Origin: Escherichia phage vB_EcoM-G28
Length of the DNA: 64,000 nt
Sequence record: NC_054916.1
Strand: one strand, 5' to 3'
The notes beneath the pieces are model-generated. The model had not been told where the DNA came from. It made no database searches and saw only the letters and a program-made list of their open reading frames with translations. Both the position numbers and the translations under genes were made by a program. Of this stretch, positions 836 through 49,787 are shown one piece after another (position 1 is the stretch's first letter; each line of letters starts with the position of its first letter).

Positions 836-1309
836 TTATTTGAACGATTTAACGTACTGAATAGAACCTTTACTATTTACAAAGGCAATTTTACCATTTT
901 TATTATACATGGTAGCAGTACGTTGATAGCCATAAGTTTGTTTACCAGATTGATAACCAACTAATGCGAAATTATCTTCACCCATTTTATTCTGTTTAGC
1001 GCGAATGCGTTCATGACCATGTGCCATAAGAACCTTAGCATCACCAGTTGCAATGGATCGACGAGTTTTTTCATCTTCAACTGTATTAACAAAGTCGTCA
1101 AATGAATCAAATTTAGCATGAGATTTATTATACAATTTTCCATCTACTGCATAATTATATCCCTGTACATCCATCTCAACTTCTGTACCATCATCCAATA
1201 CAGCAGTGATTTTTTGACCTTTTTTAAATTTCAAAAGATCAGTAAAAGATTCAGCAATAATTTGAGAATTAATAGCTGCTTCAGTGATAAATTCTTGATA
1301 TGTTTTCAT
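836..1309 (-). CDS. Internal head protein (IP family) with N-terminal capsid-targeting sequence MKTYQEFITEA
   Basis: N-terminus matches the T4 IP capsid-targeting sequence (MKTYQEFIAE) including an I-x-E gp21 cleavage motif; position next to e equals the T4 ipIII/ipII locus; length 157 aa differs from my recollection of T4 IPII/IPIII. Confidence 0.65.
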   Translation of the reverse strand: MKTYQEFITEAAINSQIIAESFTDLLKFKKGQKITAVLDDGTEVEMDVQGYNYAVDGKLYNKSHAKFDSFDDFVNTVEDEKTRRSIATGDAKVLMAHGHERIRAKQNKMGEDNFALVGYQSGKQTYGYQRTATMYNKNGKIAFVNSKGSIQYVKSFK

Positions 1310-2366: not shown

Positions 2367-2385
<19 letters not shown>

Positions 2386-2855
2386 TCAGTGATAAAGTTA
2401 TTTAAATTTTGAGTATATTTCTTTTCATCAAAAATCTTTTGTTGTCTGCGTAAACGCCATGGCATTTCAATGAACATACGCCATATTCCTGATAATACTG
2501 CTGCTGTAAAAATATTAACAAGTATAGTTAAAAGAACCCAATCTCCTATTCTGTCCATTGGATTTTTTATAAAAAAGTAAAATACGAACGATGATATAGG
2601 AAGACTAATGATATACCACAGAAGAACCTTCTTATCTGTGAACCAATCAGCATTCGTTAACTTAGCGCGACCGTTTTGAATACATACGAACTTATCATCT
2701 GTTACAGTAAATGGCTTAGCTGCTTGATATCCCATTCTAAACTCCCTAATCAACAAATTTTTCATATCTTCGGAACAACCATTCCAGTCAACTCTATCAA
2801 CTGAAATGCCATCATCCCCATCATCTAAATCATACCAGCGAGTTTTTAAAATCAT
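2367..2855 (-). CDS. Hypothetical membrane protein (e.2 position)
   Basis: ORF with two clear hydrophobic segments; synteny with T4 e.2. Confidence 0.6.
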
Positions 2856-3214
2856 TTAATTTTCCTACAATCACTCACAAACTCTTTCATTGATTCATTT
2901 TCAATATAAGACATGTAGCTATTATATTCTTTTAATTGTATTTTGTAATCCTTTTTTCTTTGCCAATTTATTTTAAAATTATCATAATAAAAATATAACA
3001 TGGTACCAAAGAATGAAAATAATGAAATAATTTTAGTATAGTGAAGTTCACTCCAAACTTCTATTATATTTACTGTGCCGTCGATGTTTAAAATAATACA
3101 GTCAATTAACAATCCAAAAAGACTACCCGCAAGAGCTGCAGCCAACGCCACAGCAAAAATTAAAAATGACTCAGGAAGCGAATATTTGACTTTATTTAGT
3201 TTTGGCTTTTGCAT
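2852..3214 (-). CDS. Hypothetical membrane protein (e.3 position)
   Basis: ORF with hydrophobic helices; ATGA start/stop overlap with neighbour. Confidence 0.6.
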   Translation of the reverse strand: MQKPKLNKVKYSLPESFLIFAVALAAALAGSLFGLLIDCIILNIDGTVNIIEVWSELHYTKIISLFSFFGTMLYFYYDNFKINWQRKKDYKIQLKEYNSYMSYIENESMKEFVSDCRKIK

Positions 3215-3609
3215 CGTGATTCCTTAACAAATTTCATAATTTCATCAAATTCATGCGCAGCAAGTTTAAGCTGATGTTCCTTTTTAATCTTTTTACACTG
3301 AGCTTTCCAATCACATACACGTTTACGATAGTGTCTTCCTTGATACCAGTATCCTATCCAATTTATAGGTACTAATAAAAGCGGAACTACCAATGGAAGA
3401 ATTAGTGTTGCTCCAAATATTGCACCAGATTCAATATCAGTCATAACGTCTATAACTATTCCAGCAATCAGCAGAATCACAAATGATACGGCTACCACAG
3501 GACCTATTAACACATCAGTAGAAATTATCTGACGCTTTAGTTCATACTTCAAAGGTTTACTTGGAAGGTATAGTGATGGCTTTGACATATTCTCTACATT
3601 CCTTAACAA
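3196..3609 (-). CDS. Hypothetical membrane protein (e.4 position)
   Basis: ORF with multiple hydrophobic segments. Confidence 0.6.
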   Translation of the reverse strand: MLRNVENMSKPSLYLPSKPLKYELKRQIISTDVLIGPVVAVSFVILLIAGIVIDVMTDIESGAIFGATLILPLVVPLLLVPINWIGYWYQGRHYRKRVCDWKAQCKKIKKEHQLKLAAHEFDEIMKFVKESRCKSQN

Positions 3610-5088: not shown

Positions 5089-5364
5089 TTATTTCATATT
5101 ATTGAAATGTTCTTCTGCAATTTCGTCGTTATCATGGTAAACTTTAGAAGACAGTTTAACATAACTTTCAGCAGTGAACATGTTAATCACAACTTTTACA
5201 GTATACCACTGACCGTCTTCATTACCCATTACCGCATAGGTTTCAAACATCGGATGATCAGGACCGATAACTTTAATATCATTCACTGTACGACCGAAAT
5301 CTTCTGAAACGCATTTCATAAAGAAGTTGAACAGTTCGCCGTAATTATCCATTTCATTCTCCAA
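5089..5364 (-). CDS. Hypothetical protein, 91 aa (e.8 position)
   Basis: ORF preceded by an early-type promoter. Confidence 0.55.
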   Translation of the reverse strand: MENEMDNYGELFNFFMKCVSEDFGRTVNDIKVIGPDHPMFETYAVMGNEDGQWYTVKVVINMFTAESYVKLSSKVYHDNDEIAEEHFNNMK

Positions 5365-5395: not shown

Positions 5396-5425
5396 ATAGT
5401 ACCATGGAAGAACGGGGATGTAAAC
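5396..5425 (-). promoter_or_regulatory. Early-type promoter (-35 GTTTAC, -10 TACTAT)
   Basis: Same motif architecture as the other early promoters; sits about 30 nt upstream of the 5364 start. Confidence 0.5.
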
Positions 5426-5478: not shown

Positions 5479-5555
5479 CAATTAAAAGATAGGATAATAT
5501 ATTATAAAGGGTAGAAACTAAATGATGCCTAGAGAGGCCCAGAAAGGCCTAGATA

Positions 5556-5583
5556 CCAAAAAGCCCCAACCTTTTGGTCGGGG
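5556..5583 (-). terminator. Intrinsic terminator (CCCCGACC-AAAA-GGTTGGGG + T5)
   Basis: Hairpin plus T-run read on the minus strand; near-identical copy at 6113-6140. Confidence 0.6.
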
Positions 5584-5592
5584 TTAAGAATG

Positions 5593-5862
5593 TTATTTGA
5601 TTTGTTTAGCAGACCAAATGCGGTCTTTAATAATTTTTTGGATGTCTTCAACATACTCAAGAGAGTGAACATGTGGATTATCTTTGAAACTATAGGCACG
5701 GGCTAACTTTTGGCCTTCGGTTTTGATTACTAAAAGCTCTTTAAGGATAGCTTCATACTTAGCGATAATTCCTTTAACAATATTTTTTTTCTTGTGTAGC
5801 TTTAGGATCTGCTTTAGGAGCAGGTTTACCCGAAGCCTTTGCAAAAGCAGCGCCAGTAGCAA
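5593..5862 (-). CDS. Hypothetical ORF; no in-frame ATG after the upstream stop, possibly joined to the 5774-6067 ORF by slippage at an A8 run
   Basis: C-terminal 60 residues look protein-like; N-terminal part overlaps the neighbouring ORF out of frame. Confidence 0.3.
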   Translation of the reverse strand: MLLALLLQRLRVNLLLKQILKLHKKKNIVKGIIAKYEAILKELLVIKTEGQKLARAYSFKDNPHVHSLEYVEDIQKIIKDRIWSAKQIK

Positions 5863-6067
5863 CTAGACTTTTCCAGGCCATACTAACCGCATTTCCCGTA
5901 AATCCTTCTGCTTTCATGTCGCGAGCAAATTGGAATCGTGATTCGTCAGAAGCATCTTTATAGGAATATTTACCCGCTGCAATGGCTGCTTTTGCAACAG
6001 CTTGAATTTCGGTGCTAGATGCTTCATTTAACACCGCTTCATTTAAAAATTGAGCATATGATTTCAT
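5774..6067 (-). CDS. IP-like small protein with capsid-targeting-like N-terminus MKSYAQFLNEA
   Basis: N-terminus resembles the IP capsid-targeting sequence with L-x-E cleavage motifs; own TATAAATA late promoter 37 nt upstream. Confidence 0.5.
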   Translation of the reverse strand: MKSYAQFLNEAVLNEASSTEIQAVAKAAIAAGKYSYKDASDESRFQFARDMKAEGFTGNAVSMAWKSLVATGAAFAKASGKPAPKADPKATQEKKYC

Positions 6068-6103
6068 CTTATTTCCTGTTTTAATTCGTAGATTTAATAT
6101 ACT

Positions 6104-6111
6104 TATTTATA
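6104..6111 (-). promoter_or_regulatory. Late promoter box TATAAATA
   Basis: Reverse complement of tatttata immediately downstream of the tRNA-cluster terminator. Confidence 0.55.
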
Positions 6112-6112
6112 C

Positions 6113-6140
6113 TAAAAAGCCCCAACCTTTCGGTCGGGGC
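6113..6140 (-). terminator. Intrinsic terminator after the tRNA/stable-RNA cluster (GCCCCGACC-GAAA-GGTTGGGGC + T5)
   Basis: 9-bp stem with one G-U pair, GAAA loop, T-run on the minus strand. Confidence 0.7.
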
Positions 6141-6144
6141 TAAG

Positions 6145-6458
6145 CCTTGCGGCAACCTTGTCGGGGTTCCACCTGCTAAGGCAAGTGTTTGTACGAAACG
6201 CCGGGATTCGAACCCGGTTATTAAGCAGTTGACGCTACTCAATATTTTTAAAAGGCCATATCTCGACCATATCCGAACGTTCCGTCAAAAACGCTACTCG
6301 GCTTACGGCAAAGATATTTCCTCGAATCGATAATTCGGTGCGCCGTTTCTGCTGTGATGTAAGGGGATATTAACAAATCATAAAGATTTATTAAGACCAG
6401 TCCTTACTCAGGGAACATCAGTCCGACGTCTTGCCGGTAGCGACCCGGCTTCTTGTCT
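6145..6458 (-). ncRNA. Small stable RNAs downstream of tRNA-Arg (probable homologues of T4 species 1/2 RNAs, RNA C/D); boundaries approximate
   Basis: No credible ORF; tRNA-like T-arm CCGGGTTCGAATCCCGG at 6201-6217 and other stems; position matches T4 subcluster II. Confidence 0.4.
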
Positions 6459-6460
6459 GG

Positions 6461-6533
6461 TCGAGGCAGTAGGGATCGAACCTACGACCCAGGACTTAGA
6501 AGGTCCTTGCTCTTCCTTCTGAGCTATGCCCCG
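6461..6533 (-). tRNA. tRNA-Arg: tRNA-Arg (anticodon UCU)
   Basis: Hand-folded cloverleaf: acceptor CGGGGCA/TGCCTCG, D-stem GCTC/GAGC, anticodon loop CTTCTAA, T-arm GTAGG-TTCGATC-CCTAC. Confidence 0.8.
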
Positions 6534-6536
6534 TAA

Positions 6537-7202
6537 TTAAAATTTCATTTTTCGACCTTTAAACCATCCTTCTGGAATTGGGTCAGTTTTCTTAATACGT
6601 TTAGAAACTTTTTCATCTAATGAATGAATCCACATCATACCAAATTGGGAATTCTTTTCGCCCTGTTGGTGTTTATTTCTGGCGTGAGATTCTTTCATTT
6701 TATTAATAGTTTCATCTGAATGGGACTTACCCAAGAAAGATTTAGTATTTGAAAATTTCTCTCTATACTTAGGATTATCCCAAAGCTGTTTAAACCTTTC
6801 TGAACCCATTTTACGATATTTTTCTTTAAGGTCTGGGTCGTTCTCAAATCTGGTTTTAAAAGCGGCAACTCCTTTTAAGGAAGCTTCTTTCTTTTTATCC
6901 AAATATTCTTTAGTGTTTAAATGGTCCCAACCACCTTCACCACCTAATTTCAAATTATAAACGTCAGGGCGCTTTAAAAACTCTTCAGTCACAATATTCT
7001 TTTCTGACTCAAACATAGAGGTTTTATCGTCAAAGAACTCTAATATTTCTTTAGAGAAATTTTCTATACCATACTTGTCTTGGGCTCTTTTTAATAATTT
7101 ACCAGAACCCATATATCCATCATCTAAATTTTCGGTAGAATGAGCGCCTATATAGATTTTATTATTAATTTTATTTGTTATTTTATAAGTGTAATGGAAC
7201 AT
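6537..7202 (-). CDS. segB: GIY-YIG homing endonuclease SegB, 221 aa
   Basis: GIY-YIG motif (KIYIGAHS...YMGSGK) at the N-terminus; embedded in the tRNA cluster as in T4. Confidence 0.85.
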   Translation of the reverse strand: MFHYTYKITNKINNKIYIGAHSTENLDDGYMGSGKLLKRAQDKYGIENFSKEILEFFDDKTSMFESEKNIVTEEFLKRPDVYNLKLGGEGGWDHLNTKEYLDKKKEASLKGVAAFKTRFENDPDLKEKYRKMGSERFKQLWDNPKYREKFSNTKSFLGKSHSDETINKMKESHARNKHQQGEKNSQFGMMWIHSLDEKVSKRIKKTDPIPEGWFKGRKMKF

Positions 7203-7243: not shown

Positions 7244-7315
7244 TGGCCCTGGGTGGAATTGAACCACCATCTGGCGATTATGAGTCGCTTGCTTGAACCT
7301 TCCAGCTACAGGGCC
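7244..7315 (-). tRNA. tRNA-Ile: tRNA with anticodon CAU (Ile by T4 analogy; Met by anticodon alone)
   Basis: Cloverleaf folded by hand: acceptor GGCCCTG/CAGGGCC, anticodon loop CTCATAA, T-arm GGTGG-TTCAATT-CCACC. Confidence 0.75.
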
Positions 7316-7912: not shown

Positions 7913-8206
7913 TTACCATTTATGATAATACATATTTACGATGCATTCAAGACCCAAAGGATTCTTGAAAATATCATATTCAAGAGGACCTTTTTCTGTT
8001 TCAATAAAGAAATCAAAATTTACTGTATTAAATTTACGGTCTTCCTTTACTAATTTAACTTGAGAAGATGAACGGTCAATGTAAACCTTTTCAACTTCAA
8101 AACATGTTAAAATGCCATAATCATCAATCAAGGCTTTAGCTGCTTCTTGATCATATTTATATCCATTTTCAATGGATGATACTTTCGCATAAAGAATCAT
8201 TATCAA
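7913..8206 (-). CDS. Hypothetical protein, 97 aa
   Basis: ORF, start overlaps upstream stop (coupled). Confidence 0.5.
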   Translation of the reverse strand: MIMILYAKVSSIENGYKYDQEAAKALIDDYGILTCFEVEKVYIDRSSSQVKLVKEDRKFNTVNFDFFIETEKGPLEYDIFKNPLGLECIVNMYYHKW

Positions 8207-8586
8207 CCTTCATCAACAATAGTGTGCGTATTGGCATTAACTATTTGCCACCAATCAAAGCGATTAAAACCATACATCGGTTTGTTTTCATTTTCTTTGA
8301 TAATGTCACGGAGTTCATCTTCGGTAGCGGCTTTCGCTATTAAATCAGCATATCCACCACGAGGATAATAATTATCACCTGCAAAAAGTAAAAAGTTTGG
8401 TTTAATGTTATTGAACTCTTCAAGAGTAATAACTTTTCCTGATGGTAGTTGAACAATCTCTACATATTTATATCCCAATTTTTGAGCAGCATCTACTGCT
8501 TCAAGCAAAGTATCATGAGCCCATCCAATTTGACAACCTGGCTTTTCAGATGGATTAGCCTGATAATCCGCATACACTTTGTACAT
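8203..8586 (-). CDS. Hypothetical protein (start chosen at ATG 8586 with GGTG RBS; the longer ORF to 8625 begins with TTG)
   Basis: ORF plus RBS inspection. Confidence 0.5.
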   Translation of the reverse strand: MYKVYADYQANPSEKPGCQIGWAHDTLLEAVDAAQKLGYKYVEIVQLPSGKVITLEEFNNIKPNFLLFAGDNYYPRGGYADLIAKAATEDELRDIIKENENKPMYGFNRFDWWQIVNANTHTIVDEG

Positions 8587-8587
8587 T

Positions 8588-8773
8588 CTATTCACCTTTA
8601 GAAATTTTATCCATAACGATAGCAATTAAACCAATTAAAAATGCTACTACAAGTGAAAAAACATTTTCTGCTGTAGTCAATAATCCGCATATAAATCCAA
8701 CAAACATTGAAAAACTAAAAGCGGAAGCAGAAATTGCAATAGCAACATTTCGAATTAATTCACAACGTTTCAT
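8588..8773 (-). CDS. Small hydrophobic (membrane) protein, 61 aa
   Basis: Strong GAGGAG RBS; hydrophobic sequence; early promoter upstream. Confidence 0.55.
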   Translation of the reverse strand: MKRCELIRNVAIAISASAFSFSMFVGFICGLLTTAENVFSLVVAFLIGLIAIVMDKISKGE

Positions 8774-8849: not shown

Positions 8850-9140
8850 TTACAAAAGATTTTTAGCAATAATCTTGAGATGTGCCGCAGAAATGTGTTT
8901 AGCTTTAAACAACGCAGTTTCTTCAGCAGGAGAGATAACGATTGTAGCACCATCCTTTTTAGCAGACCACCCATCACCTAGGTAAACAGTACCTTTGATT
9001 TCTTCGCCATCAACCAGACTAATCATTGGTTTACCTTCTCGTCCTTTATTTGCTTTAATAACTTCAGAAGTAAGAGTAGCTTCGGTAATGGTAGAAACCG
9101 GGGTAGTTGTAGTAGAAGTAAATTCTTTAAATGTTTTCAT
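8850..9140 (-). CDS. ipI: Internal protein I (IPI-like), 96 aa
   Basis: Position between tRNA region and 57B; body of the protein matches my recollection of T4 IPI; N-terminus MKTFKEF... is capsid-targeting-like. Confidence 0.75.
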   Translation of the reverse strand: MKTFKEFTSTTTTPVSTITEATLTSEVIKANKGREGKPMISLVDGEEIKGTVYLGDGWSAKKDGATIVISPAEETALFKAKHISAAHLKIIAKNLL

Positions 9141-49498: not shown

Positions 49499-49732
49499 AT
49501 GTTACTAGAATTTAAACAATTTCTTTATGAAGCTTCTATTGATGAATTTATGGGTAAAATTGCCTCTTGTCAAACATTAGAAGGTTTAGAAGAACTTGAA
49601 GCTTATTATAAGAAAAGAGTCAAAGAAACTGAATTAAAAGACACTGATGACATCTCTGTGAGAGATGCTTTGGCAGGAAAAAGAGCTGAATTAGAAGATT
49701 CAGACGATGATGAAGTAGAAGAAAGCTTTTAA
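49499..49732 (+). CDS. uvsW.1: UvsW.1, 77 aa (start MLLEFKQF)
   Basis: Size and synteny; acidic C-terminus. Confidence 0.7.
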   Translation: MLLEFKQFLYEASIDEFMGKIASCQTLEGLEELEAYYKKRVKETELKDTDDISVRDALAGKRAELEDSDDDEVEESF

Positions 49733-49741
49733 ATTAAAAAA

Positions 49742-49764
49742 GGCCCAACCGAAAAGGAAGGGCC
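49742..49764 (-). terminator. Hairpin GGCCC...GGGCC followed by T6 on the minus strand
   Basis: 5-bp stem, long loop; T-run on minus strand. Confidence 0.35.
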
Positions 49765-49787
49765 AAAACTATAGACTAAAGGTCACA

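Follow-up and report, generated by a model that had tools for sequence, protein, structure and literature searches.

Variable genes encoding leader-bearing proteins are found at two internal protein (Ip) loci of the T-even phages, flanked by conserved regulatory blocks that are proposed to mediate their shuffling (Repoila et al. 1994, as related in PMC2839356, PMC4122927 and PMC12373910). Upstream of the T4 ip genes there are early-type promoters, accompanied by AT-rich palindromes (PMC2839356), and the shuffling principle is generalized by the promoter-early stem-loop (PeSL) cassettes (Arbiol 2010, PMC2839356; Comeau 2014, PMC4122927). For encapsidation, the first 10 residues of the T4 internal protein IPIII are enough; targeting depends on residues 4 and 7 and processing on residues 8 and 10, and gp21 cuts after L/I-X-E (PMC9026906). 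The three T4 internal proteins, Ip1, Ip2 and Ip3, are all injected and act on type IV restriction enzymes of the GmrSD kind, each inhibiting one variant, distinct from those of the others; ip4-10 have also been studied, and the 'two Ip loci' are treated as a hotspot for such inhibitors (PMC12373910). The present study concerns a stretch of 64,000 nt from Escherichia phage vB_EcoM-G28 (NC_054916.1), referred to as the window, and in it a small gene, designated cassette A, which is situated between e.8 and rnaC, the gene that closes the tRNA cluster, and is bracketed by two copies of a terminator hairpin. The data presented below indicate that this is probably a swappable accessory cassette at a polymorphic rnaC-e.8 site, coding for a capsid-targeted, injected protein.

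The region is 90-96% identical to hundreds of Tequatrovirus genomes, and by this measure the window is Tequatrovirus DNA with the cassette lying between rnaC and e.8. The site is laid out as follows, in the direction of the minus strand.

6192-6330 (approximate), minus strand: homolog of rnaC (species 1 RNA), the last tRNA-cluster gene, placed from the RB33 annotation by alignment
6109-6144, minus strand: upstream copy of the repeat, a terminator call (stem 6141-6118, 10 pairs, 7 of them GC; T-run 6118-6114)
6104-6111, minus strand: T4-type late promoter TATAAATA, a sequence match beginning two bases past the upstream T-run
6074-6077, minus strand: Shine-Dalgarno sequence AGGA, read from the sequence, 5' of the ATG at 6067-6065
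5774-6067, minus strand: truncated allele of cassette A, 97 aa, beginning MKSYAQFLNEAVLNEA and ending QEKKYC* (from the open reading frame (ORF) list; PHROG 2280)
5783-5790, minus strand: A8 homopolymer, site of a +1 frameshift by alignment (A7 or AGAAAAA in full-length alleles)
5593-5782, minus strand: out-of-frame rest of the ancestral 157-aa gene, an open frame for the C-terminal helical hairpin domain
5553-5588, minus strand: downstream copy of the repeat, a terminator call (stem 5583-5564, 8 pairs, 6 of them GC; T-run 5562-5558)
5396-5424, minus strand: predicted early-type promoter of e.8 (TTTACA-17-TACTAT with TG), the downstream edge of the polymorphic site

The direct repeats, as defined by a repeat search, comprise 36 nt, 33 of which are identical between the copies, at a spacing of 556 nt. 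An earlier, sequence-only reading of the window had recognized this near-identical pair; its spans (5555-5592 and 6111-6150) overrun the repeat by a few bases at the high-coordinate end, in a part where the copies are no longer alike, and the count just given replaces its figure of 34 of 38. The pair is real and beyond chance, a 31-nt core with up to three mismatches being found at two sites only in the window and in none of 100 shuffles. The duplicated part consists of the hairpin, the T-run and 4+4 flanking nt; identity thus reaches past the stem to include the loop and the non-pairing flanks (CTTA..., ...GTAT), and the late promoter lies outside the repeat. In both copies a GC-rich hairpin is followed on the minus strand by TTTTT, in the manner of an intrinsic terminator, and stable RNA folds are predicted (-20.3 kcal/mol, z = -3.7, for the upstream copy; -17.3 kcal/mol, z = -2.1, for the downstream copy). 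Counterparts of both hairpin sites are annotated as terminators (TransTermHP/WebGeSTer) in SA20RB, SA21RB and fPS-90, and the same late promoter element is annotated in those three phages. The putative minus-strand terminators and the TATAAATA element were located where the sequence-only reading had placed them, and the layout that it proposed, of terminator, late promoter, gene and terminator, is borne out. In T4 one hairpin only is situated there, approximately 57 nt past rnaC, and the upstream copy is its ortholog; the T4 hairpin is reportedly the terminator of the tRNA/species-1 RNA transcription unit (Broida & Abelson 1985). The e.8 ORF is found at 5089-5364; its promoter lies approximately 135 nt beyond the downstream repeat copy, and the counterpart of that promoter is annotated as a T4 early promoter in SA20RB and SA21RB.

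To establish the states of the site, 735 records matching the T4 empty-site query were sampled at a spread, 60 of them being classified.

Empty site, with one hairpin: approximately 6 of the 60 rows (T4, T6, RB3 and BYEP01)
Cassette A, approximately +556 bp: 24 rows (RB33, SA20RB)
Cassette B alone, approximately +689 bp: 2 rows (Killian, ECO07P1)
e.8 side only matched: 10 rows, the examined ones of which carry A+B (SA21RB, ECML-134)

The A+B arrangement was also observed in fPS-90 and OES_C-1. As aligned, therefore, the rnaC-e.8 site is found in four states: empty, A, B and A+B. The alignment against T-even relatives that the sequence-only reading had called for shows the interval to be present, absent, replaced or doubled. 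Cassette A was found in 493 phage records (approximately 490 sequenced phages). For cassette B the number was 165, with an identity of 95% or more in every case. T4 and T6 have neither gene, and wherever the two occur their annotation is hypothetical. Cassette B (810-1373 in locus L004, 716-1279 in L005 and 1129-1691 in L018, which is RB69) encodes a protein of 187 aa beginning MKTYAEFLTEA, and in RB69 a frameshift divides it into ORF148c and ORF149c. The hairpin after cassette B is a different one (CCCTATCTAAATGATAGGG) with the same tail, CTTTTTGGTATCTAGG; before the gene there is AATAAATA only, with no canonical TATAAATA upstream. In BLASTP comparisons the similarity of the A and B proteins is limited to the 11-residue leader; both match PHROG 2280.

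When the junctions were tabulated, each state could be written as rnaC-H-(A-H)-(B-H')-e.8, where H and H' are the hairpins, and all of the joints fall within a hairpin or its T-run. In T4, whose 284 bp from e.8 to rnaC are without an annotated gene, alignment with the window yields a clean indel, T4 passing from the rnaC side to the e.8 side through a single hairpin. That hairpin is a hybrid: its upstream flank and loop (CGAAAG) correspond to the upstream window copy, and its tail (TTTTTGGTATCTA) to the downstream copy. The T6, RB3 and BYEP01 junctions are like that of T4, with one hybrid hairpin and nothing missing or added. The downstream haplotypes of the empty-site phages differ, that of RB3 being identical to that of RB33 and that of BYEP01 to that of Killian/fPS-90, and variants private to a genome are common to both of its hairpins (CCCCAACC in SA21RB; CCCCTTCC in the Mosigvirus phage Shf125875). 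Because the empty-site haplotypes match different occupied lineages and the hairpins share private variants, these short stretches of sequence suggest repeated events at the site. We infer from the junctions that crossing-over may occur from hairpin to hairpin.

The distribution of the gene family bears on the direction of these events. Phage Shf125875 has a diverged gene A (approximately 75% nucleotide identity) in the same place, bracketed by two related hairpins. A Klebsiella T4-like phage has a homolog of gene A after its tRNA cluster, with a different hairpin and an identical 20-nt junction, GGGGCTTTTTAGTATAAATA. Yersinia phage fHe-Yen9-01 has two leader-bearing ORFs that share one TATAAATA, and the homolog is the second of the pair. 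Since the arrangement of terminator, late promoter and gene family is present in Mosigvirus, Klebsiella and Yersinia phages, it would appear to be old; and since the family follows the tRNA cluster in the Mosigvirus and Klebsiella phages, loss in the T4 lineage (T4, T6 and RB3) is at least as likely as gain, and probably more so. A deletion between the two hairpin copies would be the simpler account of the T4-type empty site. As to the proposal that the module had been gained by recombination, recombination is suggested by the joints in the hairpins and T-runs, and gain is not supported.

Three observations on related phages may be recorded here. The two tandem ORFs of fHe-Yen9-01 (2384-3537 in locus L015) encode proteins of 189 aa (MLQYNEFLKE...) and 178 aa (MLEYSEFLKE...) that share a C-terminal TPDLY motif, which suggests a tandem duplication within the family. 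A 94-aa protein on a Logan contig of 2898 nt (P0014) is chimeric: its N-terminal part matches the C-terminal half of the product of the ORF at 8203-8625 (Pfam Phage_T4_Y07C) and is fused in frame to the last 30 or so residues of the cassette-A protein, which implies a natural deletion that took away the tRNA cluster in its entirety and the greater part of cassette A. In the Mosigvirus phage RB69, approximately 1.5 kb covering rnaD, rnaC, cassette B and e.8 is approximately 95% identical to a Tequatrovirus, and has the appearance of a recent exchange of the rnaD-e.8 block between the genera; the hairpins were considered as crossover points for the entry of B into RB69 and were rejected, as the tract of high identity extends from rnaD as far as the end of e.8.

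The ORF at 5774-6067 had been described in the sequence-only reading as a gene with a capsid-targeting-like N-terminus and L-x-E sites. The ORF exists and has a leader and sites of that type, but, as judged from alignment, it is a truncated frameshift allele of a gene that measures 474 nt (157 aa) in RB33, SA20RB, SA21RB, fPS-90 and fD1, and it should be flagged as such in annotation. The 97-aa product comprises the leader (MKSYAQFLNE|A), the N-terminal helical domain and the linker. In the ancestral frame the remaining 60 codons are open until a TAA (5595-5593) that lies 4 nt short of the downstream repeat, and in all of the A8 alleles that were read the downstream frame is free of stops. An identical 97-aa product is found on at least 15 contigs from independent sources (NCBI, ENA and Logan), including those of T4_ev240 and vB_EcoM-G28, which represent two nucleotide haplotypes with differing gene neighbourhoods; the A8 allele is therefore not a one-off error, and these alignments show it to be a real, circulating minority allele. 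A 93-aa form with the same QEKKYC* ending occurs in a diverged homolog (P0008), only 68% identical to the query, and represents a separate truncation. The opposite frameshift arose twice (P0006 and P0009), giving forms of 111 and 108 aa (SfPhi01, F26 and others). The A-run at the domain linker has thus undergone independent frame shifts in several lineages, and both directions of shift are represented. Even so, frameshift alleles are rare, and almost every sampled match to the gene measures 474 nt; exact-pattern scans of IMG/VR (A7, 8; A8, 0; A6, 0) were too sparse to inform allele counts. Programmed slippage at the A-run was considered and is not favoured, as a synonymous change interrupts the run in RB33 and fD1 (AGAAAAA), so that it is not conserved. 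Because the shifted alleles are rare and the run is broken in those two phages, it is read as a mutational hotspot.

An AlphaFold2 model of the protein, built on an 11-sequence alignment, is helical throughout and has two domains, between which lies a disordered linker (predicted local distance difference test (pLDDT) score, 73.8).

Residues 18-71: N-terminal three-helix domain (pLDDT 83-90)
KPAPKADPK: linker, disordered in the model
Residues 88-155: C-terminal helical hairpin

The frameshift falls just past the linker, and the A8 allele for that reason keeps both the leader and the conserved N-terminal domain.

The features of the leader are those that would be expected of an internal protein. 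T4 IPII and IPIII begin with MKTYQEFIAEA; when MKSYAQFLNE is compared with the corresponding MKTYQEFIAE of IPIII, Y4 and F7 are identical, as are five of the ten residues overall, with conservative S/T and L/I substitutions in addition. All four of the mutationally defined positions are kept in cassette A (Y4, F7, L8, with L for I, and E10). Sites of the gp21 type occur at L8-N9-E10|A11 and again at L13-N14-E15|A16, and the processed N-termini predicted from them are AVLNEASSTEIQAVAK or ASSTEIQAVAK. By the criterion of sequence, the N-terminus is of the capsid-targeting type. The leader is also the most conserved feature among the Tequatrovirus, Mosigvirus, Klebsiella and Yersinia homologs, in which the C-terminal domain has been replaced, and cassette B, which also occupies the site, has the same kind of leader. 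The predicted mature protein is basic (isoelectric point, approximately 9.5). A six-frame scan of the window revealed one other ORF with the leader pattern, which belongs to a PHROG described as 'internal virion protein'. The canonical Ip-locus genes of the window are as follows.

836-1309, minus strand: 157 aa, DUF7412 / PHROG 3155 'internal virion protein', beginning MKTYQEFITEA
8850-9140, minus strand: 96 aa, IPI-type, beginning MKTFKEFTST...

With these two genes and cassette A, leader-bearing genes are present at three separate sites in the phage. The rnaC-e.8 site falls outside both of the polymorphic Ip loci (denV-e and trna.4-57B). In Yersinia phage fD1, the 157-aa g140, which shares 98% identity with the window protein after repair of its frame, was marked as particle-associated in LC-MS/MS of purified virions (Table S3); as approximately half of the proteome was so marked, this constitutes weak evidence of specific packaging, being consistent with it and falling short of proof. 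Taken together, the sequence features make an internal-protein character plausible.

A mechanism that would accommodate these observations can be outlined. The upstream hairpin would end transcription of the tRNA genes and rnaC, and TATAAATA, which abuts its T-run, would start late transcription. The product would be a basic helical protein of two domains, with a T4-type capsid-targeting sequence as its first 10 residues, and from that leader it would be expected to be built into the prohead core, trimmed by gp21 after L-N-E and injected with the DNA; most plausibly, by analogy, it would then act as an anti-defence factor like T4 Ip1-3. The downstream hairpin would end the transcript and insulate e.8, which has its own early promoter. 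As near-identical 36-nt direct repeats, the hairpins could act as portable homology, so that recombination within a phage's own pair, or with a co-infecting relative, would remove, add or swap a cassette, leave the neighbouring regulation intact and yield the four states. In vB_EcoM-G28, the extra A in the A7 run would truncate the protein past the N-terminal domain and linker. A more ambitious proposal can be entertained only tentatively and is thought unlikely to hold in full: that rnaC-e.8 is a third, so far unrecognized Ip locus, that A and B are packaged, injected anti-defence effectors, and that the A7 run is a recurrent on/off switch between a two-domain protein and one with the N-terminal domain alone.

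A number of results weigh against the explanation favoured here and must be set beside its alternatives. It could be argued that the hairpins are simply two conserved terminators, and that presence, absence and replacement of the cassettes came about by ordinary homologous recombination in the flanks (rnaC/rnaD and e.8). The RB69 tract agrees with this, since its identity drops sharply on both sides of the rnaD-e.8 block with no step at the hairpins, so that it does not run from hairpin to hairpin. The flanks, moreover, are 92-97% identical across hundreds of phages, whereas the repeat measures merely 36 nt, which is reportedly short for T4 homologous recombination (Singer et al. 1982), and the change from A+B to A needs only a 9-nt match, GGGCTTTTT. 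Exchange via the conserved flanking genes does, on the alignments, explain at least some of the events. Such exchange, however, moves existing states between phages and cannot create an empty site from an occupied one, or the reverse; nor would it explain why the T4, T6, RB3 and BYEP01 junctions consist of exactly one hybrid hairpin, why repeat identity exceeds the stem to include loop and flanks, or why the two copies in a genome have private variants in common. As an account of the site as a whole it is therefore regarded as unlikely. With respect to the gene itself, the truncated allele may be a decaying pseudogene, already dead or dying in vB_EcoM-G28 (or, less likely, the extra A may be an assembly error). 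The change from A7 to A8 removes 60 residues, frameshift alleles are a small minority and went unseen in the sparse IMG/VR scans, and cassette B is likewise split in RB69. Nevertheless, the identical product recurs on contigs of two haplotypes and varied neighbourhoods, the truncation spares the leader, the linker and the whole of an N-terminal domain that is conserved across genera, truncation and opposite frameshift have each arisen separately in other lineages, and no A8 allele has acquired a stop in its downstream frame. A pseudogene is, on this evidence, quite unlikely.

Even if the gene is functional, its product could be a late cytoplasmic accessory protein that is not packaged, with a leader likeness that is vestigial or coincidental. 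In favour of this, the 157-aa and 97-aa proteins have no Pfam or NCBIfam match, and among the PHROGs they match only family 2280, of 'unknown function'. A search of 5.8 billion proteins returned 14 clusters only, all of them 'hypothetical proteins' of T4-like phages; Foldseek found no neighbour in the PDB with E < 0.1 and hence no functional lead; and in the family, homolog and Foldseek searches neither IPI nor any solved structure was matched by homology or by fold. The leaders of A and B were not found in the accessible part of the supplementary material of PMC12373910, and no mention of RB32ORF133c was found in the literature. The site is outside the two recognized Ip loci (PMC2839356; PMC12373910), and its GC-rich hairpin and late promoter differ from the early-promoter and AT-palindrome context of T4 ipI-III. 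The fD1 proteome is unspecific, as 113-137 of 277 products were particle-associated, including DenV, NudE and lysozyme. It should be added that the anti-defence role is a best guess, for which analogy with Ip1-3 is the sole basis, and that termination, late transcription, gp21 processing and injection are predicted from sequence features. On the other hand, a coincidental or vestigial leader would hardly be expected to keep the four mutationally defined positions, or to be conserved across genera while the C-terminal domain is swapped. The second occupant of the site has the same leader, the sole other ORF with the pattern in the window scan is an 'internal virion protein', and expression from a late promoter fits prohead assembly in its timing. 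A purely cytoplasmic role is accordingly considered improbable, and the capsid-targeted cassette is retained as the explanation that best fits the data.

The remaining features of the region are described for completeness. Upstream on the minus strand are eight tRNA genes, a segB-type GIY-YIG ORF, a tRNA-Arg gene, and the rnaD and rnaC homologs. The coordinates of rnaC were obtained by applying to RB33 the offset from the alignment (3588), which also reproduces the ARAGORN tRNA-Arg call at 6458-6533; the rnaC homolog has no Rfam family, the Rfam matches in the region being tRNAs only. The segB-type homing-endonuclease ORF is inside the tRNA cluster at 6537-7202 (minus strand). The gene at 7244-7315 (minus strand) is called tRNA-Met (CAT) by ARAGORN, and the T4 record annotates tRNA-Ile at that position. 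A terminator-like hairpin, GGCCCTTCCTTTTCGGTTGGGCC followed by TTTTTT, is present at approximately 49715-49784 (minus strand); it resembles the repeat loosely in theme, differs from it by more than three mismatches and is probably unrelated.

If A and B are indeed packaged, they would constitute two common further candidates for inhibitors of the GmrSD type, and leader-bearing genes would occur beyond the two Ip loci, in disagreement with the explanation put forward in PMC2839356. The site can be tested directly in the culture-collection phages RB32, RB33, RB69 and fD1.

In comparison with described systems, the cassette is closest to the T-even Ip loci (Repoila et al. 1994; Mullaney & Black 1996; PMC12373910). 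IPI, IPII and IPIII, like the cassette product, are small, non-essential, basic proteins with a common N-terminal leader of approximately 10 aa ending in L/I-x-E; at the Ip loci, as at this site, the number and identity of the genes vary between close relatives, and conserved regulatory blocks on both sides are the proposed mediators of shuffling. In contrast, the present cassette lies at rnaC-e.8, at neither denV-e nor trna.4-57B, and the linker here is a GC-rich intrinsic terminator with TATAAATA, where the Ip loci have an early-type promoter with an AT-rich palindrome. The cassette-A family (PHROG 2280), moreover, is unannotated, lies outside the ip4-10 set of PMC12373910 and is known here from its sequence.

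The PeSL cassettes of RB49/phi1 and other T4-like phages resemble it in a different respect. They consist of a single ORF between two composite regulatory motifs, each with an effective stem-loop terminator, with a sister genome that has one motif and no ORF, which is the relation between the window, RB33 and SA20RB and the empty sites of T4, T6, RB3 and BYEP01; being transcriptionally self-contained, they can be gained or lost without effect on their neighbours. In PeSLs, however, the promoter is a strong sigma-70-like early promoter, whereas here it is the late TATAAATA, at the upstream copy only and outside the repeated part, and the motif is undispersed, with two copies in 64 kb. The morons of lambdoid phages (Juhala/Hendrix, in PMC2839356) are likewise extra genes with their own promoter and terminator inside another transcription unit; unlike the cassette, whose terminator is duplicated and marks every junction, they lack conserved flanking repeats and are not thought to move via regulatory sequences. 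The shuffling principle is thus a known one. What differs here is the site, outside the two Ip loci, the linker of terminator and late promoter, and the unannotated cargo, although Comeau et al. 2007, a paper cited for more than 30 IP variants, may already list it. With respect to the terminator of the T4 tRNA/species-1 RNA unit, the window copy differs in being duplicated and fused to a late promoter, and with its four states and precise junctions the rnaC-e.8 site illustrates clearly, in nature, how a terminator may serve at the same time as a linker for recombination.

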